Part shown: positions 3,217 to 56,211 of the stretch, one piece after another | Layout of the letters: the number at the start of each line of letters is the position of its first letter | Numbering within the stretch: position 1 is the first letter of the stretch | Source of the DNA: Vermamoeba vermiformis | Lineage: Eukaryota | Length of the DNA stretch: 64,000 nt | Assembly (NCBI GenBank): GCA_045837725.1 | Contig: JBEWZL010000076.1 | Span: 372,001 to 436,000, forward strand | Reading direction: 5' to 3' | Translations under genes and position numbers: made by a program | The notes under the pieces: generated by a model | Seen by the model: the letters and a program-made list of their open reading frames with translations, nothing else | What the model was told of the DNA's origin: nothing | Database searches by the model: none

Positions 3217-3911
3217 GAGGGATTGGCGGAAAAAAAATAATGTGATAACTCGTCGGACTTAAAACGCCCGAAGTTATGTTATAACAACCGCCAAAAAAAC
3301 TTGTCTCATTTACAATTATAACTTTTATTAACTACTCAAAATATTTACAAAATGCAGCATAAATTCAGATATAATATTGTTTTAATTTGCGTTGATGGTG
3401 TTCGTTAATTATTTGAAAAAAGAAGTGCTGCATCTAATTGATCTTCGATAAACTCTTTCCGAACAATGCCAAATCATTGCCCCTAATGATGGATCGACTC
3501 ATATATGATATATAAATATTATCATGGTGTTATGTGGTCTTTGGACAAGCGAGGGTATGCAAAATGACGCGACGGAGTTTTGGTCATTTGTCGCCGCTCT
3601 CGCCTTACAACAACCACAAACCATTAAAATAAGCTTGCGCATAATCATATGGCATTATATGCATATTTTAGAAATAATTGCAGCCAAAATAATGCAGTTT
3701 TAAGCTCGATCAGGTGTTAATCCGAAAATTTCAAAAAGACGCGCCAATGATGGGACTAATCATCGCTTCGCGTTCTATATTTGTCTTGTTATTTTTCCTA
3801 ATTTTGAGTTGCTAATTTGAGTTATAAATGTGAGTTATAATTATAAACGAGACAAGTTTTTTGGCGTCATAAGTAAATTTATGTTATAACGGACTATTTC
3901 GCCAAACCCTC
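3217..3911. mobile_element. MITE (non-autonomous TIR element) in intron 1 of LRR copy 1
   Basis: Termini GAGGGATTGGCG / CGCCAAACCCTC are imperfect inverted repeats. An inner inverted pair is CGCCAAAAAAACTTGTCTCATTTACAATTATAACT vs AGTTATAATTATAAACGAGACAAGTTTTTTGGCG. ATT flanks both ends (3214-3216, 3912-3914). The host intron is 846 nt versus ~140 nt in the paralogs. Confidence 0.8.
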
Positions 3912-4253
3912 ATTAATTATGTTTGAACGAGCAGCGGCTTTATCGGTTAATATCGTTATTAACTAGGGTGCGCTCAAAGAAATTGTAACCATCGCAGATG
4001 ACATAGCTCTAACAACAGCCGTTATGTCGAACACGCCCTTTGTATTGGCTGAAAAATACGATACGATGAGTATTCCGCACTCATCGCACATACCAATAGC
4101 ACCTATTATGGAAGCACTGCATAAGAACATGACAGTTAAGAACTTATTAATCAACAACCGGATTTGGGATCAAAAAGAACTTAGAGAGTTTGTTAGGTGC
4201 CTGGCAAGCGTTAATAGAGGCATTACGAAGATAGTTTTACAATCACATGATTT

Positions 4254-4676
4254 AAGACGAATTATGGTAAAAGAAGGGGGGAAAATATAATTAAGGCATA
4301 AGTGTAGAAGTAATAATTATATAGTAGTTTATAGCTGTACTTAAAAGAAAATAACTTTTTTATAGAGAAGAAAATAAAAGAATTTTTAATAAAATTTTTA
4401 ATTTTTTAATTAGATGCGCAAAGCCCTTCGCACGCCCGCGATCCTCGCGCACCTGTAGCGACTTCGTCGATAGGACTACAAGACTAGCAGGCGGACGCCG
4501 CTGTGACCGGATATATGACTCATGTGTGCCTGCGGACCGGTCTACACCCACAGCATTCTAGTTCCTATATTTTGATTACCAGATATCCTGTTGTTAATTT
4601 GCCAATAAACTTGTATATATATTTCAGTATAAAACTTTTTCCCTCCATGCGCTGTCGTTTTACCATAAAATGTGTT
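4254..4676. mobile_element. 423-bp TIR insertion in exon 2 of LRR copy 1
   Basis: ATTT direct repeat at 4250-4253 and 4677-4680, with inverted core TTATGGTAAAA / TTTTACCATAA near the ends. Removing the element plus one ATTT restores HDFEPNFIEAL, matching NDFNPNFVEAL in the paralogs. Confidence 0.85.
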
Positions 4677-6271
4677 ATTTCGAACCCAATTTTATCGAAG
4701 CATTAGTGAAGATCTTGAAATTAAATCGACAGATCAAAACGATTGAAATTACAAGCAATTCAACGCAACAATTTCATGAAAAAGGATTCATTAGATTGTG
4801 CGCTGGCATGGAATATTATCATTTCGAAGAAATATTTGCCTGGTACGCCAGACTTTCAGCGGATCTTTACAAACTATGGTTTGAATCGTTGAGATACAAT
4901 CAATCTATCAAACGTATCCGTATTCTTGGCGAAGAAGTATCTGGAGCTCCAATGATATCACTTTGCAACACTTTAGTAGCGAATCCAACGATCACCGATC
5001 TACGGTTTGTCGGTTGTAAATTGAACCAAGAAGACTTTAAACACTTCAAACAAGTCCTCAAAATCAATTATATTAAACAGTTAATGTTCCGAGAAACAAA
5101 ATTTACAAAGGACATATTAAAATTGATCGCAGAAGAATTGGTAGCAAACACATCCATCACCGAGTTGAGACTGGAATGGTGCGAATCAGATTGGAAGTTA
5201 TTAGGAGAGATATTAAGTGCTAATAAGACGATAAAGAAGCTCGATATTAGCGAAAATTCAATCAGCGATAGAAACCTCAAGTACTTAAAACTTGGATCGA
5301 ACACTACTTTGACAGATCTGAATTTGATTAATTGCCGTCATCTCACCGATCATAAAGCATTGTTCGTTCAATTAATGGACAATAAGACATTAAAGAAACT
5401 TGCTATCGGTCACAGCACTGCAAATCCGGATCCAAAAATGCTCGAGCAATTTATTTCTACGAATAATTCAGTGACTGAACTTACATTACATACCGATTAT
5501 AATCCGTATAAAGACGAAGTATTACAAGCACTAGCTGATGGTCTTGCAGTAAACAGATCCATAAGAAAATTTACGATGCTTCTCATGCGGATTCGATACA
5601 GCACATTTATCAACTTAATCGAAGCATTGAAAGCGAAGCAATACGCTATTAGAGCTACATACGACTAAACTTGGCAGAATTACTTTGGATCGCAGGCCTG
5701 CAAACGGTTCTGACATTGACGATGTAATTTTGGATCTGCTCAAAACGAACCAATCGCTGCGGTACATTACTGGCGCAGAAGATTATCCGTACCTCGAAGC
5801 ACGACTGAAAGAGAACAGAGACACGCAAGACAAGATCATTCGCGACACTTGCACATTGATCAACATGATTGTCACCAAACCACAGTCGTTCATCTTGCCC
5901 ATCGAGCTGTGGCTTCATATATTCAAATTTGTATCGTATTCATTCGTGCATTTTGATTTTGAACAGTACTTCAACTCTCGTGTACAATATTAAACTCCGA
6001 ATCCTTTGAGTATTGAAACTTTTTATTTTAGCCGAGGTATTTTATTAGCACCTGATTCTGTGAATGCTAGTAATATTATTGCCTATCGCGTAACTGTAAC
6101 CAGGATCTGCCCTAAAACTGACTCAATATTTATGGGTCTAATGCCCGAAATCTCGATCTCGTGTCACGCAAGGAACACGAGATCCATTTTTACTTCCTTT
6201 CAAACTTATCGCAATAACATAAGTGTAGCTTATTATTATTGCGTACTTATTAATATTATTACCGTACAACA

Positions 6272-8106
6272 ATGGAGAAGCACAAAGACAAAAATAGATC
6301 TGATAAAAAGAATAAAGGCAAAACCAAGTCGAAGCGCGCTGCTACGGAGGTATTAAATTACAAAAATGATAATAGAATATTGTCAATTAATAAATTTATC
6401 CGCGAATTATATAAAGTTTTTTCAATTTTTCGCTCCGCATAAGAAATTACGTCACGTATATTATTAAAATATTGAATTTTTTGAAGAAATATAGAGCACC
6501 TCCCACCCCTACAGTCGTTGCGGACGATATGGCCTTGATTAATGCGGTCATGACCAACACACCCTTTGAATTCGGCATTGCTTACACCCAAATGAATCTC
6601 CCGACCTCGTTATACGTATCAATAGCACCTATTATGGAAGCATTGGCGAATAATACGACAGTCCAAGAATTAGTCGTCGTGCCGCGGATGTGGGAGCCAA
6701 AAGACCTTAAAGAATTCGTTGCATGTCTTTCAAGCGCCAATAAGGGCATCAAGAAGATAAAGCTGCTTAATAACGATTTTAATCCCAACTTTGTGGAAGC
6801 ATTGACGAAGATCTTGAAAACGAATCTGCAGATCAAAACAATTGAAATTTCAGGTCGTCCAACGCCCACACGCAGTGTAGAAGGATTCGAACGGTTCTGC
6901 GATGGCATGGATTACTATTATTTCGAGGAATTAGTTCTAACAAATGACTCGATTGGACTGGCGAGCTACAACACTCTTTTTGAATCATTAAAATACAATC
7001 AGTCGATCAAAATCTTAAAGCTTAATGGCAACAATGTATTGTTGGGAGGGCCTATTAAAACTCTATGCAGCACTCTGATTGCAAATCCAACAATAACAGA
7101 ACTGAGTTTTAACAACAGCGGACTGATGCTTTTGACAGCAGACGGCTTCAAACTATTCAACGACATGCTCAAAGCTAATTACCTTAAGAAACTCACGCTG
7201 TTGAAAACAACGCTGCTGACAGATGACTTGGCCGGAGTAGCGGAAGAATTAAAAAACAACACCTCCATCACGGATTTGACCGTAAAACATTCGCTAGTGG
7301 ATTGGAAACTATTTGGAGAGATTATATCATCTAATAAGACTATAACAAGATTAAATATCGCATCAAATAGCATTAAGTCACAGGATATTCAGTACTTTAA
7401 TTTTGGATCGAACGTGGCTTTGAAAGAATTACTTATGGAGCGATGCTGGGACCTAGGCGATTACAAAACATTATTGCCTGAAATAGAAGGAAACAATTCA
7501 CTCAAACGATTGGCTATTAGCGTTAATGATGTTAATTTTGATCCGATCCAGCTTGAACAATTTATTTCCACGAATAAGTCGTTGACGGATTTAAAATTGC
7601 GCGGCGAGTATTACCCACTCAAAACCAAGACGTTGAAGGCTATATCGAATGGTCTTAAAGTCAATAATACACTAAGAAAATTTGACATCAATCTACCGAC
7701 AGTTAAATACGAAGATTTTAACTACTTTGTCAACGTGCTCCATGATAATAATACACTACGAGAGCTGCATATGACTAAATTATCTCAAGTACATTTCAAG
7801 AAGAAGCCTTATTATGCTCACAGCACCAACATTGACGATTTAATCTTGGATCTGCTCAAAACAAACAAATCTCTGCGGTACATTACTGGCGCAGAAGATT
7901 ATCCGTACCTCGAAGCACGATTGAAAGAGAACAGAGACACGCAAGACAAGATCATTCGCGACACTTGCACATTGATCAACATGATCGTCACCAAACCACA
8001 CTCGTTCATCTTGCCCATTGAGCTGTGGCTTCATATATTCAAATTTGTATCGCATTCATTCGTACATTTTGATTTTGAACGGTACCTCAACTCTCGTGTA
8101 CAATAA
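6272..8106 (+). CDS. RNI-like LRR protein with Lys-rich N-terminus and C-terminal F-box-like motif, copy 2
   Basis: Exon 1 is 6272-6349 (MEKHKDKNRSDKKNKGK...), followed by a phase-0 intron 6350-6486 and one long exon. It has repeated L..N.(S/T)(I/L)..L.L units and ends in FILPIELWLHIFKFV. Confidence 0.85.
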
Positions 8107-8454
8107 TAAACTCCGGATCCAAATTTGATAAATGTTCCTAGATAGTTTAAGCACTCGATTCTCATCTAGCAGTTGTTGTCATATCCGTTGATAATCAATG
8201 GTAAAAATGCTTCTGAGGATAAATCAACGTAAGGTTCAAAACGATATCTCATTTTTTTCTCGCGTTTGAACAAACTACCACAAACCATCCGCGACTTTAT
8301 TTTGCCTTTCCGATAAGGTGAGTGCTGAATAATAATTTTTATTGCTCTTTTTCTTGTCACGTACGAGTTGAAGTTTGAGAAGTATCGGAGAAGATTGGAT
8401 CTAGCCCAAAAACTTATTAAATATTTTTAATAATTATAGGAATATCACCACTCA

Positions 8455-10006: not shown

Positions 10007-11838
10007 ATGGAGAAGCACAAAGCCAAAAATAAAACGGATAAAAAGAATAAAGATAAAAAAAATAAATCGAAGCAGGCTGATCCGCAGGTATTAAATTACG
10101 ATAATTATATACAATATTGTTAAGAATAAATACTTCATAGGGGAATTAATTTAATTATTTTATCATCTTTTCAAGCCTAAATCGAATTAAATTCCGTTAT
10201 TTATTATTAAAATAATTAATTATTTTGCAGCCCTATAGAGCACCTCCCTCCCCTACAGTCGTTGCGGATGATATGGCCTTGATTAATGCGGTCATGACCA
10301 ACACACCCTTTGAATTCGGCATTACTTACACCCAAATGAATCTCCCGACCTCATTTTACGTATCAATAGCACCTATTATGGAGGCATTGGCGAATAATAC
10401 GACAGTCCAGGAATTAGTCATCGTGCCGCGGCAGTGGGATCCAAAAGACCTTAAAGAATTCGTGGCATGCCTGTCAAGCGCTAATAAGGGCATAAAGAAG
10501 ATATCTCTGATTAATAACGATTTTAATCCCAACTTTGTGGAAGCATTGACGAAGATCTTGAAAACGAATCTGCAGATCAAAAAAATTGAAATTCAGGGTC
10601 GTCCGATGCATAAATTCAGCGTAGAAGGATTTGAGCGGTTCTGTGGCAGCATGGAATATTATAATTTCGAGGAATTAGTCATAACAAATATCGAGGCCGG
10701 ACTGGCGGGTTTCAACGCTCTTTTTGAATCGTTAAAGTACAATCAATCGATCAAATCATTAAGTATGAATGGCAATGTAGTGTTGGGAGCCCCTATTGAA
10801 ACTCTATGCAGCACTCTGGTTGCAAATCCAACACTAACAGATCTGACTTTTAACTGCAACGGACTTACAGCAGAAAGCTTCAAATTCTTCAAAGAAGTAC
10901 TCAAAGCTAATTACATTAAGAAATTCACTCTGTTGCATACAACGCTACTGACAGGTTATTTGGCCGAGATTGCGGAAGAATTGAAAAACAACACATCCAT
11001 CACGGATTTGGCCGTACAATATTCGCAAGTGGATTGGAAACTATTTGGAGAGATTATATCAACCAACAAGACTATAACAAGATTAAATATCAGTGCAAAT
11101 AGCATCACTTCAACGGATATTCAGTACTTTAATTTTGGATCGAACGTCACTTTGAAAGAATTAATTATGGAGCAATGCTGGCAACTAGGCGATTACAAAA
11201 CATTATTTCCCGAAATAGAAGGAAATAATTCACTCAAACGATTGGCTATTAGTGTTAATGATGTTGATTTTGATTCGATCCAGCTCGAACAATTTATTTC
11301 CACGAATAAGTCGTTGACGGATTTAAAATTGCGCGGCGAGTATTATGCACTCAAATCCGAGGCGTTGAAGGCTATATCGAATGGTCTTAAAGTCAATAAG
11401 ACGCTAAGAAAACTAGACATCAATTTGGCGACAGTAGACTACGAAGATTTTAACTACTTTGTCAACGCGCTCCATGACAATAATACACTACGAGAGCTGC
11501 ATATGACAAAATTATCTCAAGTGTATTTCAATAAGAAGCCTTATTACGCTCACAGCACCAACATTGACGATTTAATTTTGTACCTGCTCCAAAAGAACAA
11601 GACTTTGCGGTACATTACTGGCGCAGAAGATTATCCGTACCTCGAAGCACGATTGAAAGAGAACAGAGACACACAAGACAAGATCATTCGCGACACTTGC
11701 ACGTGGATCAACATGATTGTCGCCAAACCACACTCGTTCATCTTGCCCATCGAGATCTGGGTTAATGTAGCCAAATACATATCGTATTCGTTCGGGGCAT
11801 ATGATTTTGAACGATATTTTCGCTCCTATTTAAAATAA
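10007..11838 (+). CDS. RNI-like LRR protein with C-terminal F-box-like motif, copy 3
   Basis: Exon 1 is 10007-10087 (MEKHKAKNKTDKKNK...), intron 10088-10230. The long exon is closely similar to copy 2 and ends FILPIEIWVNVAKYI. Upstream DNA at ~9860-10100 is duplicated from ~6140-6360. Confidence 0.85.
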
Positions 11839-11863: not shown

Positions 11864-14800
11864 TTACGCAAAGGTTTCAGGGAAGGAAACCAATGCTTGT
11901 TTCCTGTAATATTTAGCGGCTTCATTCATGCCTGCTTGTTCTAATAAGGCTACAACCGTCGACAAGGCTTCTTTGTTCTGTTCATAAAAGAGAAAAATAA
12001 AGTTAATAAAATTTCAATGCCAGGCAGTCACTTACGATTGGTGAATTCCATTTCTTCAACAAGACTACCATTGCATTGAACAAGCGGCCGTTGAACTTTT
12101 CACTGAACACGACGAACTTGGCGTACTTGCTGTCACTCTCCAAAGTCGGGAATTGTTTCTTCAACGTGTCGTACAGCTTGCCGTAGGTCTCTTTGTCCTC
12201 ATTGGTCAATTCGTTTTGCTTCTCTTTGGCTACCAACGTCTCCAACAACGCATTGGCCTTCTGGTAAAGCGCATCCGTGTAGACCTGCCAAAAGTGTCAA
12301 AAAAAAAGATCGGATGTGTACTTTCGCTAGTGACTTACGGTATCAGTCAAGGCCCACAACTTGGCGTCAAATCCAGCGAGAGCAGGGTCCTTGGCGTTCT
12401 TGTAGGCCGCGAGCTTGGTCGTGTCCACAGCAGCAATTAGTTCATCAGCAGCGCTAATGACGGCTTCGTTCTTCTTCTCTTCAACGGCCACTTTAACGAG
12501 TGCGTGCAAGTAGGTCAAGTAGAGCCCTGGTTGAGTATCTTTGTTGAGCTTGAGACCGCTTAAAACTTCTCTGGCACCATTGAAGTCCTTCTCGGAGCTA
12601 AGTCTCAGCGCGTAGGCCATTGATTGGTTGGCCAAGAAATCAGCGTGATTTTCAGCCGCTGACTTCTTCGTGTCAGGCACGAACTTTTGTGCGGCAGACG
12701 AGCTGCTGCTTGGCTTGGGACTGACTGGGTAAGTGAATGACAATGCAGTTTCGCCTTCGTGGAAATTTATGCCTTGGCTGCCGTTCATCGCAGGTTCTTC
12801 GCCCTGAAGGTCATGCACTGGTTAGCACTACTAAATTAGGCAAAGGTTTCACGTACCTCAAGTTTCTTCCAGCTGACGCGGCCCAGCAATAAATCACCTT
12901 TTTCGGCATTCAACGCGCTCACAGCACTGTCTTCAGGTGCTTTGAACCACATCGTGTTCACGCGTCCCTTGGCCATTTTGACGGTCTTGACTTTAGATCC
13001 GCCAGTCAACGCCCCGTCAAAAGTGTTGAAAATGTCCACTGATACTTGCTTGTCTTTGGGGACTTGAATGTCAACGAACAAGGGCCAGTCTTTCATGGAC
13101 TCCAAAGTCTTCGAGGAGTTGGATCTCATTTGCACACGCACAGTGTACGTGCCTAATGCACCGTTAGTACTAGTATATGCATACGAAAGCTTAGTCTTAC
13201 CTTTAGCGGGCACTGAGAAGGCCTTGGGCCATGCATCACCCTTGGCAATGAGCTTCTTGTTCTGGTCAAACACGGTCCAGAACTGGGCCTCGTGCGGGGA
13301 CTCGTACAAGTACTCGCTCAAGCCAACCACACGTGTGATTACCTTGTACGAAGTTTCGTTGACGTGCTCGTACGTGTAAGTCAATGTCATCTCGTAGATT
13401 TGTTGACCGTCCATGTCAATGTCACGCTTTGAACGGATGTCAGTGAGATTCATGAACGATCGCTGCGGTACTTACATCAGGGCAACCAGTTCTGATTTGA
13501 CTTGAGGTCGGTCTCAAAGTCTTGCGAATGACACCTAACTTGGCAGTAGGTGCGAGTTCTTCCTCTCGCAAATGCGTGCTAGTAAGGAATGAGTAAGGCA
13601 AATACTGAAGAAAACATGACTTACGCAACATCACAGCGCACCAGTTTATCACCAGGACCCAAGTGAAGTTGAGGAGGAACGTTGATTCCATGGAACTCGA
13701 CCTTGAAAGTCACGTCGCCGGACGAGCCGATCGAAGACCAGCTCTGACCAATGTCTAGTTCGAGTGGCTGACCTCCGTGGACTCTAATGGGCCAGACGTA
13801 TTTCTCCTCGCCTTGGATCCAGAAGTACGTCTCATCCACGTGCCGAGAGCTCCATTGTTTCAAGTAAGGCTGTCATTATGTTAATAAAGGAATACTAATA
13901 ATGACAATATATACTTACATAAGCCACGATCAACATTAATCTGTTGTTCTCAAACTTGTTGGCTTGCACAGTAACTTCAGCCCAAGTAGCGTGTTCAGGC
14001 ACGTGAATAAATCTTCGTTCCACGTGACCAGGCGTGAACTTGATAGGCACGCTGGATTGAATGGTGTGCTCCTTGATAGTCCTGTAACAAGCTCGTGAGC
14101 ACGTGTTTGACGGTAAATATAAGAGTACGTACATTGGCTTAATGAAAGTGAGAGGCACGCGCAACAAGGGACCGTGCTCGGGGTGATCGCTGTCAGTGAA
14201 CAGAACTTCACCGTGGACAAGCTTGCCTTCAGGGAACAACGAAGGATCAGCACTGACCTTCATCGAACGAGCTGAATTACATCGTCAATATCAACACAAA
14301 AACACTAATTAAAAATTATCTTACGTTCAGCCATCAAGACGAGGTGCTCGGCAAGTTTGATGCCAGGAATGGTGCACTTGACGTTCAATTTCATTTCGAA
14401 TTGAACTTTGTCAGTGTTCGAGATCGTCTTGGAAAAGATGGGCAAGATCTCCATGTTCTTTTCGATCAGTGAATTGAACTCCCAAGCGTCACGAACGTAG
14501 AGACCACGTGCGTTGTTACGTTGAGGAAATTTCACGTCCAATCTCAAGTGCGAGATTTCAGCGGTCTTCTTCGAGTACTCAAAAGACTCGTTGACTTGAA
14601 TCAAACCGTAACCTTGAGCCAATCGCTCGACATTTTCAATTTGACGAGCAGTATTTTCAATCGCTCTCTTCAAGCTGAATGGCGTGAATGGGATCTTCTG
14701 GTGTTTGAGTGCTGAAATTACTAATGCCAAGCAACCGCAAGCATTAGGGCTAGACATGGAAGTACCGTTCATCAATTGTTTCTTTTTCAACTGATAGTTG

Positions 14801-30623: not shown

Positions 30624-33473
30624 TTACTTGGGCTTGTCCTTAGACTCCTTGAGCGAAACGGTGCGGTTGAATACGTAGTGACCACCATCCTTAGTGTCAG
30701 GATCAACACAGAAGTAGCCGTGACGCTCGAACTGCAACTTGGAACCAACATTGAGGCCAACAAGGGCGTGAGGATCAATGAACACATCGTGAACGTCGAC
30801 ACGGGACTGAGGGTTCAAGTCACCGAGCCAGTCGTCCAAAGAGCCAGGGTTCTTGCTCTTGAACAGCTTGTCGTACAATCGAACCTCAATCTTAGCGGGT
30901 TCTTTGCCAGGCTCGGGCTGAGCGACCCAGTGCAAGTGACCCTTCAACTTCATCTTGGCAATCGCGTCCTTGTCCTTCTCGCAAATGGCCATCAATTCGA
31001 CAATATTGCCGTTGGCGTCCTTCTTAGCGTCGGTGATAGCAATGGGATAAGCGTACTTCAAACCGACCCACTTGGGCTTGTTGTCAGCAGTCTTCAGAGC
31101 CAAACCGAAGAAGTTCTTGACGTCCTCTTCTTTGAAATCTGATCGTTCAATGTAGACAACGTTGGACAAAGGAACGGTGTGCGTGCCGTGCTCGGGCTTG
31201 CCAGGGAAGTTCAAAACATCGATCTTCTCGACACCACCGGTCCAGTTGGTGATGGTGACCTTGAGGGGCTCCATAACAGCCATGACACGAGGGGCCAACT
31301 GTCAAACAGCAACGTCAGTACGAAATCCACAATAGAAGTAGCGTGATACTTACAATGTTGAGGTGCTCTCGGACGTGGTTCTCGAGCACTTCGAAGTCGA
31401 TGGTGACAGTAGTGTTACGAGTGACACCAATGTCCTCGCAGAAAGTGTTGATGGCTTCAGGAGTGAAACCACGGCGACGGTAACCGACAATGGTGGGCAT
31501 ACGTGGATCATCCCAGCCAGAGACGTACTTGTCCTCCACCAGCCTGATCAGACGGCGCTTGCTGAGCACGCAGTTGGTCAAGTTCAAGCGACCGTACTCC
31601 CAGACAACAGGCTTGTAAATGCCGAGTTCTTCGAGCAACCAGAAGTAGGACTGACGACGAACTTCAAACTCGAGTGTGCACAACGAGTGAGTGATGTCTT
31701 CGAGCGAGTCGTTGATGCAGTGAGTGTAGTCGTATGAAGGATAGATGCACCACTTCTCGCCAATGTGAGGGTGAGGAACGTACTTGATACGATAAGCAAT
31801 CAAGTCGCGCATGACGGTGTTCTCGTGGTTCATGTCCATCTTCAAACGCAGAGTGGCAGCACCTTCCTCGAACTTGCCCTTCTTCATGTCCTCGAACAAC
31901 TTCAACGACTCTTCAATGGGACGATCTCTCCAAGGACTGGGGATCTTCTCAGCTCTGCATCGCTTAATTTCTTCGGGGGTCTGGTGGCACACGAAAGCCT
32001 TGTCTTTCTTAATCAACTCCACAGCAAAGTCGTACAACTGGTCCAAGTAGTCGGAAGCATACGTGATCTTCCAGGGCTTGTGACCCATCCAACCAACGGT
32101 CTAACGAATGTTAATATTGCACGCAGTAAAGTAATATACGATACATACATCGATGATTGAGTTGATATATTCAACGCTCTCCTTCTCGGGATTGGTGTCA
32201 TCAAATCGCAAGTAGCACTTGCCGCCCATCTTCTTGGCATAGCCAAAGCTGAGGTTCATAGCCTTAGCGTGACCAATGTGCAAGTAACCCTAAAATCACA
32301 GGTTAGCGCGCTGTGTTTGTGTCATAATCAACAACTTACGTTAGGCTCGGGAGGGAAACGAGTGACAACCACGCCACCAGTGCGTGCCAAGTGCTCCTTG
32401 AGCAACTCTTCTTTGTCCTGCTTGTTGTCGTGAGGATCCGGGAAAGTAATGGTCTCGGCAATCTTGGGCTTTTCTTCGTCCTTCAAGCGAGTGGACAACT
32501 AAGAACGCATGAGTAAGGTGCTCATTGGTGCACGATCAACTAATGAGACTTACATCAGCCTTGGGAGCCTTGGTCTGTTTTGGCTTAACAGTTTTGTTAA
32601 TTTCAGCGTCACGCGGACCCAAAACAGCCAAAATCTGTTCATCAAAGTGCTTTCTCAACAAAGCACTACGAGGGAATATTATTAATAAAGAGTACGTAAA
32701 AAGAATTTCAAAAAATTACCCGTCAGCGAAGGGCAACTTGGCCTTGAGAATGCTCATTACAGGGGTGTAAGCCTGGTATCTCTTTTCGTTGAGCTCGTCA
32801 GTGTTAGCAGCAATAGCGGCCTTGACTTCGTTAATAATGTCGGCTTCAGTGACTTCAACGCCTATTCAATGCACGATCACGTCAATTTCAGATCTATTGA
32901 ATGAAAATTTTTGGAGAGTTGATTTGCTATTGCATATTTTTCATTATTATCGTTCATTTGTTTACTTACCAACACCAGAATCCTTCTCGAAGGCCTCGAT
33001 CGAGATTTCAGAATCTTTGTTGGCCTTCAAATGCTTAACTGCAGCTTCGAACTGAGCAGGTGATTTGATTTTGCTCGTGGCAATATATTTAGCGAGCAAA
33101 GGTCGGTGTTTAATAGCTTCTTTCGGGAACTTGCTGCCCGCAGTGTCAGCCAAAAGGGCTCTAACAGACTTCTCTGTCTTTGTAGAAACTCCAGCCTATT
33201 TTAAGAATTAATTAAATAACATGGTCGCTATCAACTTTATGATTATTAATTTTTAGACCGCTTGCTAAATTTTAAATTAAAAACGGATGGTTGATGCGAT
33301 CTTGTCAATAGCAAACCATTTGTGTATATTAAATTATAGATCGCTATAAATACCTCTCTTAAGACTTTAACGAGCTCCTCTGTTAATTTCTTGTTCTTCA
33401 GAATATCGGTGAGGTTCTGTCCCTCATATCCGACTTCTTTCAATAAAATTTCGTTTGCGCTAGGTTCAGTCAT
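30624..33473 (-). CDS. QARS1: Cytosolic glutaminyl-tRNA synthetase
   Basis: [56 protein letters not shown] and QFERHGYF; eukaryotic N-terminal extension. Confidence 0.97.
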
Positions 33474-51995: not shown

Positions 51996-54900
51996 TTATT
52001 TTGTAAAGCGATGCAAATTGGTGATGCTTTTTTCGATATCGTGCTGCAGTTTGCTACCGTACTCGAGGTCTGCGACAATGACCAGAAAAGCGTCAATGTC
52101 TTCTTGTGTCCAGTTTTGAAGCATGAACGGAATGCCAGCAGGCAAAAAATCTAGTTTAACTCTGCTGGCGATATCTTGATAGTGAATGCTGCCGACGACC
52201 TTCCACAACGCTATCATGTTATCGACGCTCCACTTGATGGGCTCATTGCCGGTACTAAGAGCAACAAACAGTTGTTGACACGATCGCAAGTCCAGCAACG
52301 AGTACCATTCGTCTCTCACGCCAATGCGCATGTTGACCGCAAGGTTCATCCAAGAAATCAAGCGCGACAGTTGAGTGTTATCCAACTTGATGCCGTTTAA
52401 GAAGTCAAGGATAATCTTCGCTGCGGCTAGGTGAGGTTCTGATCGATCAAAATACTGGCGGTGCCGAGGGTCATTGCCAGGCAGCGCCTCGGGGATGGAA
52501 GGACATACGACCGTTCGGAATTGTTCCGCGATGTGCTCCAGCAGCTGTAGAGCAGGCTCAACGGTTTTTACTGAGTTATCATTGTTAGAACGTTGGGTCT
52601 TTACACGCTTCATTATGAGCTCACCATAGTATGGCATGTAATAGCGTTGTAACAGAATTGCTTGTGCTTGAGTAATAGGTCCGCTACAAAAAGATTGAAT
52701 GTAATTCTCTATTGACGCCGCCTCGTAATCAACTTGGCCAATTCTGAAGCGGGTTGGTGGTAGTTTGGGCAGCAAATCAAAAAAGCGTTTTTGCTCTTCT
52801 GTCAGCTGTTGAAGTTGAGCCACGGCACTGATGCAAGTCCTGACACTTTTAATATCGTACTGTTCAAGTAGGTATTGCGACTGATAAAAAGCAGCGGGAT
52901 CTTGGTAAATACTGGCCAGTCGGTCTATTTGTGCAGACGACAGTTTCACTTGAGCTCTCGTTAGCACACGTTTTGCAATAAGATAGGTCTTAAAATAATC
53001 AAACAATCCAAAAAATTTGTCATAGCATTCTTGCGTCTCGTCGACTATTCGTTCAAAAGCTTGCATAATCTCTGTCCACAGGAGACTATCACACTGCAGT
53101 GCTAATCTTAGCAAGTCATCGAACACTGCAAGGGGAAGTGTCTTTGGCAGCGCAGTAATTACTCGTTGTTGCTCTTCGCTGGGTTTGATCATGCGAATCA
53201 TCCTCTGGACACGATCAAGACGGAGTGTTGGGAAGAAGCTGAAGACTATCATTGCCGAGGCTTGAATAGCTACATCCTCCGTATTTGCCAAACGTTCCAA
53301 TAAGAATTCAAAACAACAATCTTCTTTAAAGACATCAGTAAATATTTCATAAATTGCCCTTCTGATGGGGTGGTCGACAAGTTCTACTGCACATTTTGAC
53401 GATAGTCTTTGGAATAATCTTTCCATCAGCACCTGATCATTGAAATCTGAATGGAGATGAATATGTCTGATCATCGAAATCAGCTCCTTTGGCACGCGCT
53501 TCTCGTTGCTTTCAAATTTCTTGATGACGAGGTCCACAAATTCTTGATCGCGGTTTCGTGGTGTGATTTCCTTCAAAAATAACGAAAAGGGCTTGTACTG
53601 GTTAATGTCATCAAAAAACAATTGTCCGGTGATTGGTTGTCCAAATAACTTGAGTGCCAAGTCAAAACATAACGAAGTCAGCTGATCAGTTTCATTCAGT
53701 TGTGGTGCTTCTTTAATCTTCTTCTTTTGGTGTGTTTCAGAAGCAGGGTGGATGCTTTTGGTTGAAGCGTTGTACAAACACGACACGACCAACTTGATAA
53801 AGGCCGGAGAACGGGCAGTGACATCGCGATTCCTTGGATGCTTGAGCACATCTGAAATCCATTCAATGGCTTGCTGTTCGTCATATCCCTTCATAGTAGT
53901 GATGAGTTGCATCACCGATAAAGCATCGGCCACCAAGTGCAAGGGCTGCGTCCATTCAGAGTATTCCAAAGCAGTCAATTCCACGAATTTCTGCCAGTTG
54001 AACTTAAGAGTGTCATGTAGGGCTAATTGAGCCAATAGCGATGGATAATTCTTCTTAATAATCGTTTTGACGATAAAATCGGCTGTTAAATAGTCCCAAA
54101 TGATTTGATGGTCAAACTTAATGAATCCATCAGCCTCGTCGTATGAGTCCCAGTCAGCGTAGTGACAAAACTGATACACGGGCAGGAGTTTCTTAATTAT
54201 CGCTCCACTGGCTCGATAGAATGAAAGAGGAAAGTTGCTCGTTATAATGAGCGATGACAAGTAGGGCTCTATTTCCGTCACTCGAGTGGTTCCAAGCACT
54301 TTTGCAAGATAGGCAATGAGGGCAGCTACTTGGAGCAGTGCAGTAGGGTCTTCTTCGAGGAGTTCGCGTTGATCTTCATCGAGACTAACTTTCTTCTGTT
54401 GAGTAACTTTGATAGACTGTAACAACAAGCCACCAAGAAAATCAAACTGAGAGCTTGCTAAATGCTTGCGAGGATCGATGGTACGCGCCTCGATTACAAG
54501 TAGCGAGTACCAAAATAAAGTTTGCGGAAATCTGAAGTTTTGTTGCAGGGCTTTTGCTTGTTCGAATGCTGAGTCATCTGCGCAAAGCGTCCTCAGTGTG
54601 GTATTCGAGTCTTTGATTTTTCGCATTTTGAGTGTTGTCCATGTAACACTATCATTGAACGAAGGCAGTGTTACACCGGGTCTTGACGACACCACTAAAG
54701 CAACGATGTTGACATCTTGAACTGGTCCTGAGCACTGTTGTTAGTAACTTGTCTACGGATGATTAGGAGCTGCTTACCGGGGATGGTAGGCAACATGTTA
54801 TCTATGTAATGCAAGAATTCTTCACGCTCTAAAGTCTTCATTTCATCAACAGCGTCTATCAACAGTATCACATGAGAACCTTGTTGAATGACACGTGTCA

Positions 54901-56211
54901 AAGACTCTCGCCATTCTTGTTGTCTTGATTGGTCTCGAATGTCAGCGGTGATCATGCTACTGTTCACTAGGCAGTCAATCATTGACATCGAGTTAGCATT
55001 CTCTCGCCAAAAGTATTCGGCTGTAACGATAGAACTTAGCGCCTTGAAATCGATAAAGCAATTGCTTTCGACTTTACCTTTACACATCACTGGCACCACA
55101 TCTCTCCGGTCTAGATCTAAACTCTTGGCGAGTTGAAACATTGCCATTGTTTTGCCCGTTCCCGCTGATGATTTGAGATGCACGAATTTGCGAGCAGTAA
55201 TGAATTCAAAGCTGTTGTTCGTCAAGTCCTTGATGCTTAAAGACGGAGTTGTGACTTCTTCTGTTTCGGAATTGACGTCGTGTACACTCGGCTTTGTTTT
55301 GAACTTGAACAACTCTTCGTGCACGTGTATAGGGGCGTTAAAGAATCTCTTCTGCGCAATACTTTCATCCAACAACTTGTAGTACATGTGTGCCGGGATG
55401 TTGGGCAGCAAATCGTCTTGCATAGCATTGGATGGATGAACGTCTGGCTCTAGAACAACTTGTGGGTTGGCCGACGGTGTGCCAATCAAGTCGAAGTGGT
55501 CAAAATTATCGTGCAAGATGAACTCTTCGGGCACGAGCTCGCTGTCTGCGGGCAAAGTCTCACCATCGAGAATGGCCTCATTTTGTTCAAGGACGTGTTG
55601 CCAATCAGTCATAGTAATATCTGGTTGGTGTGGTTCATAAGATAGTTGTTGGTCGAGTGCCAAGTGCGTCGGTTCCAACGGTGCAATGTCACCAGTCATA
55701 ACGCTCTCAATTTGACCTTGGTCGTCGTCTTGTTTTGTTTGAGAGTTTTTCAGTGCGTAGTGGTGCAGTACGGTCCATGTATTATCTTCTGAATCGATCA
55801 CGTACTCCCACAAAGAGTATGGTCTATCTGGTGCGGTCAATGTACGCTTGCTTATCGACATTCCGTTGTGAATTTTGACTAGAACTTTGCCGTTTTGCTT
55901 GAACTGAAGCTTTTGGTTGTTCTCATCAACTTTTCTGGGCAAAGAAGGTAAGTCATACTTGCTGGCCTTCTTGTTAAATTCTTTTTTGACTTTGAATACA
56001 TAAATCTGGTATATTAAATAGCCGATATCGCCTGAAAATTTTATAAATTAAACGGGGCACCCCTAAATTTGAATAATTTACCAGGTTTAAAGTCAGATAC
56101 TCTTTCAAGCGGAACCAGATGTGTGAGGTTTTGACCAATCAAGTCATAATAATAGTTATCATTCTGTCTATATTCTACTCCAGTATGCAAGATAAAGATC
56201 TGGTGTTCCAT
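51996..56211 (-). CDS. NACHT/STAND-type P-loop NTPase with long C-terminal helical region (NLR-like), ~1,370 aa, 3 exons
   Basis: Exons are 56211-56082, 56031-54778 and 54727-51996. Walker A SSAGTGKT, Walker B ILLIDAVDE, and the sensor-1-like LVVSSRP are joined by a 50-nt intron (GTAAGC...ACTAAC...CTCAG). Confidence 0.8.

Follow-up and report, generated by a model that had tools for sequence, protein, structure and literature searches.

Exonic insertions of the maize elements Ds and dSpm are reportedly spliced out in part by way of sites at the element ends, as Wessler and colleagues are said to have described between the late 1980s and 1992. Duplications of 4 bp at the point of insertion are made by Sola1 transposons and by other superfamilies too. 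In PMC3845634, a 4-bp AWWT duplication is termed "a hallmark of the Sola1 transposons", with Bao et al. 2009 cited for it, and insect Sola1_NA elements are listed there at sizes of 194-709 bp. Introners follow a model, set out in PMC11282704, in which one of the two splice sites is contributed by the terminus of the element and its partner comes from the duplication or the exon, such that the insertion is itself an intron. Transposon-derived introns are presented as widespread in excerpts of two sources (PMC11282704 and PMC12130899), the second of which, within the same excerpt, has introners arising from many transposon orders.

The window analysed here, a 64-kb stretch of Vermamoeba vermiformis DNA, carries a 423-bp element (4254-4676) that splits an otherwise continuous open reading frame (ORF). 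[quoted passage not shown] The transposon half of that proposal is borne out by an empty site, by the paralogs of the gene and by contigs that share the right end of the element, while the intron gain half is not: the splice sites are weak and no RNA read spans them. We hypothesize that the element is a recent, non-autonomous, MITE-like insertion at ATTT in one member of a tandem, intronless array of RNI-type LRR-like genes, a reading to which we assign a probability of about 0.85. The positions of the element, of its parts and of the genes around it are collected in Table 1.

Table 1. Positions of the element, of its parts and of the tandem genes in the window.
Feature	Position	Strand	Remarks
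Interrupted paralog, RNI-type LRR-like family	3967..5990	+	Disrupted twice: element insertion and 1-nt frameshift
Left TSD copy, ATTT	4250..4253	.	From the sequence; at the empty-site joint 4 letters fit either side
Element, non-autonomous, MITE-like	4254..4676	+	423 bp
Left TIR	4254..4272	+	15/19 bases match the right end; carries the donor-like GT at 4267
Hypothetical intron of the sequence-only reading	4267..4627	+	In frame and stop-free; not supported
First in-frame stop for the upstream ORF, TAA	4288..4290	+	Inside the element, 12 codons in
GC-rich core of the element, 58% GC	4410..4560	.	From base composition
Right TIR	4658..4676	-	Inverted-repeat match; 3 contigs of DNA run X1 match to 4677, then diverge
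Right TSD copy, ATTT	4677..4680	.	From the sequence
Extra base causing the downstream frameshift	5633..5633	+	Absent from the only X1 contig covering the place
Intact tandem paralog, single open frame	6415..8106	+	Uninterrupted at the homologous site
Third tandem paralog, single open frame	10228..11838	+	Protein 81% identical to the second; uninterrupted

The element is bounded by a perfect 4-bp TSD: the left junction reads ...CATG ATTT followed by the start of the element (AAGACGAATTATGGTAAAAG), and at the right junction the end of the element (CGTTTTACCATAAAATGTGTT) is followed by ATTT CGAACCC... in turn. The TIRs are imperfect, matching at 15 of 19 terminal bases (binomial P=3.3e-6 at the element's base composition), with 4 mismatches in the outermost 8 positions and a core that is perfect over 11 bases (4262-4272 against 4658-4668). 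A repeat search recovered the arms as an inverted pair (I1, 20 nt, 80%) and, further in, a G-rich/C-rich inverted pair (I13, 10 nt, 90%). Chance would hardly produce such TIRs with such a TSD. Both arms are rich in AT (20% and 30% GC), and the longest stop-to-stop frame inside the element, by the ORF list, is 68 aa. As in MITEs, the TIRs lie at the exact ends of the insertion, the TSD has a single-copy counterpart at an empty site, and the element is small and has no transposase gene. Among the 11 ORFs of at least 200 aa that were scanned in the window, no transposase-like family was found.

The GC-rich core could be a captured fragment. When folded on each strand, it did no better than its shuffles (z of 0.06 and 0.04), and the DNA fold of the whole element, at a z of -1.53, was equalled by 5 of 100 shuffles. 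Neither the element nor its core had an Rfam match above the gathering score; the lone Rfam match, which spans 4628-4835 and so lies mainly in the downstream flank and clear of the core, had 16.6 bits where the gathering score is 60 (E 0.64), and was taken as chance. A tRNA search of the element found none, and blastn of the element against plasmid and phage collections gave no match.

The effect of the insertion on the gene can be read directly from the frames. The upstream ORF (from 3967) enters the element and ends at the TAA at 4288, so that the product would be cut short at about 107 residues; the frame downstream of the insertion opens at 4598. Further along, ORF 4598..5668 shares its end with the start of ORF 5631..5993, which is in another frame, so that the separate downstream frameshift pointed out in the sequence-only reading is real in the window. 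With the empty site in place and base 5633 left out, both as in X1 (a DNA run filed under the same species label), the gene becomes a 532-aa open frame collinear with the intact paralog; the two are identical in 287 of the 529 columns and nearly so throughout the last 80 residues. The window allele is thereby separated from an intact allele by two disabling differences, of which the 1-nt difference at 5633 could be an assembly error instead.

As for the family to which the gene belongs, Pfam gave no family for it at E<=0.01 and only noise at E<=10. Searched against PDB, the intact paralog gave weak matches of the RNI-type LRR kind (LRRC34, an NLRP LRR domain and RNase-inhibitor-like proteins, with E of 1e-4 to 1e-2), and its homologues at E<=1e-3 were 8 proteins: four at 40-45% identity to the paralog and four at 23-26%, three of the latter four carrying LRR families. 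The label "LRR exon" would on these matches be a reasonable one, if weakly founded. Across the three paralogs the last ~80 residues are nearly identical (5750-5990, 7870-8106 and the end of 10228-11838), and the remainder of the first is 46-54% identical to that of the second; the near-identity of the C-terminal part suggests gene conversion or strong constraint, and by eye this part looks F-box-like. Elsewhere in the window (51996-56047, minus strand), a 450-aa frame with matches to NPHP3_N / AAA_22 (NACHT-like NTPase) adjoins a 914-aa frame without a Pfam family, and the two may belong to one large STAND/NLR-like gene. These frames and the LRR-like array hint at a region rich in fast-evolving repeat proteins.

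An allele without the element is found in X1. One contig of that run joins 4249 directly to 4677, which is an empty site with a single ATTT: 427 nt are skipped, four letters fit either side of the joint, 30 letters lie beyond it, and the depth of the contig (419.9, or about 420) is equal to that of the flanking contigs. The paralogs give the same picture. In a DNA alignment, the one at 6415-8106 is without exactly the stretch between the two ATTT copies and has one copy of the site (it reads NDF-NPNF there, against HD[insert]F-EPNF in the broken gene), and the one at 10228-11838 has no interruption at the homologous site. The empty-site allele and the uninterrupted paralogs therefore argue for a recent, polymorphic insertion and not for an old intron. 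At several places, 5002 and 7815 among them, X1 shows only the letter that the window does not have, and X1 is therefore another genotype; the insertion is accordingly polymorphic for presence and absence.

The filled allele was not seen in X1. No contig of the run lies over 4250-4571, the depth is 0 in the bin 4370-4523 (contigs cannot prove absence), and the depth of 92.7 in the bin 4216-4369 equals 34/154 of the depth of the empty-site contig. It is therefore from the window's assembly alone that the insertion is known. The run has 0.74 of the sampled words of 3950-5700, which is about what remains of that stretch without the element.

Just upstream of the broken gene, at 3600-3915, the depth of X1 is 861-1535, compared with about 420 in the gene, and at 3833, 3862/3865 and 3912/3915 contigs of X1, and likewise of a water-metagenome run (X5), break off with loose ends. 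The stretch thus behaves like a repeat or like a break between haplotypes; it may represent a second mobile element, or haplotypes that differ in structure. Contigs of X5 are 95-99% alike to parts of 3600-8200, with many substitutions, from which it follows that a close relative inhabits fresh water. Over 4216-4677 the depth of X5 is nil, and the run is hence uninformative on the insertion.

Three further contigs of X1 match the right end of the element (from about 4572 to 4677) and then run into unlike flanks after 4677, and one contig of this kind diverges before 4572. Related copies are therefore present at other loci, and the right boundary of the element is independently confirmed. The flanks that follow the right ends of these other copies would give a consensus of A+ATT, a mere hint at the AWWT type, the agreement being only 0.6. 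Within the window, a search for a second copy by blastn at word size 7 returned only the element itself (the next best match is 14 nt, E 0.22), and the 11-base TIR core with at most one mismatch has 4 matches against 2.53 expected, two of the four being the element's own ends. A 21-base pattern of the right end had 0 matches in the metagenome, prokaryote-genome and viral contig collections. A two-anchor pattern of the TIR core picked out 10 metagenome loci, which were taken as chance: nothing beyond the anchors is common with the element, and the best blastn match among the ten (25 nt, E 1.7e-4) falls on an AT-rich stretch away from the pattern match. No second full copy was recovered from the window or from the public collections, and for a putative multi-copy status of the element we therefore rely on the X1 contig ends only.

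The splice-like signals proposed for the element consist of a donor-like GT at 4267-4268 (in the context ATG/GTAAAAGA, the slash marking the cut) and an acceptor-like AG at 4626-4627 (TTTCAG/TAT). The earlier claim that removal of 4267-4627 would be in frame and stop-free, with a scar of 22 residues, was reproduced: 361 nt are taken out, and 66 extra nt (22 codons) are left, which would place the scar within a repeat unit. This is the only in-frame, stop-free GT..AG pair inside the element, and its donor-like GGTAAAA lies inside the perfectly conserved TIR core. The GT and the AG are situated 13 nt and 49 nt inside the element ends, not at the ends, and ATTT holds neither GT nor AG, such that an AWWT duplication cannot supply either. 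On the opposite strand of the element the TIR core offers a GT, but there is no AG near the far end. The element was shuffled 2000 times with its dinucleotide composition kept, and each shuffle was set into the same site: 395 shuffles contained at least one GT..AG pair that was in frame and stop-free, 125 contained a GTA..YAG pair of this kind, and in 40 there was a pair whose scores equalled or exceeded the observed ones at both sites. The observed pair is somewhat out of the ordinary (2-6%), though chosen post hoc; its GT and AG are most likely incidental, with some doubt left by the shuffle counts.

Host introns provide a yardstick for these signals. We mapped 16 introns of the window by homology, in the genes for GlnRS (by comparison with P0009, 95% identical) and TPPII (by comparison with P0129, 84% identical), and they make a useful splice model for the genome. 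The GlnRS gene (30627-33473, minus strand) has 7 introns, and the TPPII gene (11870-14730, minus strand) has 9 mapped introns; the best named relatives of the GlnRS, 64-66% identical, are from plants, green algae and a dictyostelid. Fourteen of the 16 introns are 46-58 nt in length, and the others are 108 and 158 nt; the putative intron, at 361 nt, is outside this range of 46-158 nt. All 16 host donors begin with GTA, 14 have G at +5, and nine read GTAAGT. The putative donor, GTAAAA, has A at +5, and its score of 2.4 bits is below those of all 16 real donors (5.7-12.8) and close to the weakest leave-one-out score (2.1). A YTRAC branch motif is located 10-25 nt before the acceptor in 11 of the 16 host introns; within 40 nt of the putative AG there is none, only a TTAAT at 30 nt, in agreement with the weak branch point that the sequence-only reading had listed among its own caveats. 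Host acceptors are TAG (8), CAG (7) and AAG (1), and the putative CAG acceptor is normal among them. The acceptor weight matrix (from the 16 introns) is overfitted, with leave-one-out scores of -3.6 to 6.2, and the acceptor score is non-discriminating; we therefore relied on donor, branch motif and length. The splice signals of the putative intron do not fit host introns.

Junction reads at 4266/4628, named earlier as the check on splicing, were looked for in the raw reads of two RNA-seq runs under that species label (X20 and X22, about 1.85 billion letters each), and none were found. Across both runs, for which there is no control gene, no read fell on the exons of the broken gene, on either junction between element and exon, or on 4266/4628. 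Three reads of the 12,966,262 records of X20 were recovered, all of them partly on the A/T-rich stretch from 4371 and with A/T-rich loose ends; three of the 12,953,743 records of X22 were recovered as well, all on the conserved C-terminal part of the intact paralog (7920-8065), where they fit two places. The loose ends of these X22 reads point to a further expressed family member elsewhere. The intact neighbour paralog is equally uncovered in the two runs. The locus looks silent in these libraries, or the libraries may come from a mismatched strain, there being no positive control for the strain match. A silent locus is one of the outcomes that the sequence-only reading had itself named as refuting it. 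An index search listed no RNA run among the indexed runs, an outcome that counts for neither side.

The earlier proposal, by which an introner-like element is spliced via 4267/4627, leaves a 22-residue in-frame insert and represents an intron being born, is in our view very unlikely. It draws on a GT and an AG that exist, in frame and stop-free, as the sole such pair in the element; on the small share of shuffles (40/2000) that gave a pair scoring as well on both sites; on a GGTAAAA donor in a conserved TIR core and on CAG acceptors that are normal here (7/16); and on the widespread occurrence of transposon-derived introns, as found in the excerpts of PMC11282704 and PMC12130899. Against these points, the donor is weak (2.4 bits against 5.7-12.8, with A at +5), there is no YTRAC, and the length of 361 nt compares with a maximum of 158 in host introns; the sites are inside the element and not at its ends, the AWWT duplication gives neither GT nor AG, the opposite strand is without an AG near the far end, and the allele carries a further frameshift. 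The absence of RNA reads on the junction or the gene in two runs weighs on the same side, weakly, since the intact neighbour is silent too and no control gene is available. A more general version would be a long shot of the same order: a MITE family in which the TIR core GGTAAAA serves as a weak 5' splice site, partly rescuing exonic sense insertions via an internal AG. If true, it would represent an early and imperfect stage of intron birth, with a 22-codon scar and with presence and absence still segregating, in a host with short introns, a microbial eukaryote whose lineage is not known for introners.

That the 427 nt come from a chimeric read or a misassembly and are absent from the real chromosome at this place is highly improbable, even with a single DNA run examined (X1) that shows the empty site, has no contig over 4250-4571 and holds 0.74 of the sampled words of 3950-5700, and with a difference at 5633 that could be an assembly error: a perfect 4-bp duplication flanking inverted-repeat ends is not what a chimera would produce, the right end coincides exactly with the point at which three independent contigs from other loci break off, rare variants are lost in contigs, and X1 and the window have further differences elsewhere (5002, 7815). 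The notion of an ordinary, old spliceosomal intron of this paralog that merely resembles a transposon is scarcely credible. A GT..AG pair is present and in frame, as that notion would have it, but an empty-site allele exists within the species label, both paralogs are without the insert, the difference is an exact 427 nt bounded by a 4-bp duplication and TIRs, and GT..AG removal would leave 22 extra codons, with the paralog-like sequence not restored.

We return, then, to a recent MITE-like insertion and to how it might have come about. On this reading a small cut-and-paste DNA transposon without coding capacity inserted at ATTT, duplicating 4 target bases; it would have been moved in trans by a transposase presumably encoded elsewhere in the genome. 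The window allele, with its truncated product and its second, 1-nt frameshift, would be a null or pseudogene allele, tolerated perhaps thanks to the paralogs and the intact allele. The locus shows, on this account, nothing surprising: a MITE-type insertion allele of the ordinary sort, in a gene family that is redundant and apparently silent. Its value is that of a clear case, in which a MITE-type insertion that is recent and still polymorphic disables one member of a redundant tandem family. It also points to a cut-and-paste transposon, with a 4-bp target of the AWWT type, that is still active here or was so until recently. Should the element be spliced after all, the locus would gain in interest: segregating intron gains with both filled and empty alleles are rare, and such a locus would allow a direct test of the path from insertion to intron.

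Comparison with the known systems places the locus as follows. With maize Ds and dSpm it would share, in the scenario proposed earlier, imperfect removal via cryptic sites in the element terminus that leaves a few extra codons behind; the maize cases were shown by cDNA, whereas here no RNA read of the two runs supports the scenario. With introners (of Micromonas, Aureococcus, dinoflagellates, fungi and others) it shares a TIR and TSD element in a coding exon, a GT inside the element terminus and an in-frame way out. It departs from the introner model, as given in the excerpt of PMC11282704, in that its sites are 13 and 49 nt inside the element and 66 nt are left behind, and it differs from introners also in signals that are weak for the host, in that no splicing is seen, and in having no known family of intron copies. 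The resemblance to Sola1, which the sequence-only reading had pointed out, agrees in part with PMC3845634: ATTT fits the AWWT hallmark, as a single duplication, and the size of 423 bp is similar to those of the insect Sola1_NA elements listed there, whereas the start of the TIR bears no resemblance by eye to the insect Sola1_NA TIRs printed there. Sola1 may accordingly be named as a lead to the superfamily, a tentative one with about one chance in four. Two traits set the element apart from the typical picture of a MITE, namely outer end bases that differ at 4 of 8 places and a core of 58% GC between AT-rich arms. In the remaining traits compared it is like MITEs: it is 423 bp long, with TIRs, a short TSD, no coding capacity and AT-rich arms, it shows presence/absence polymorphism, and it has related ends at other loci.
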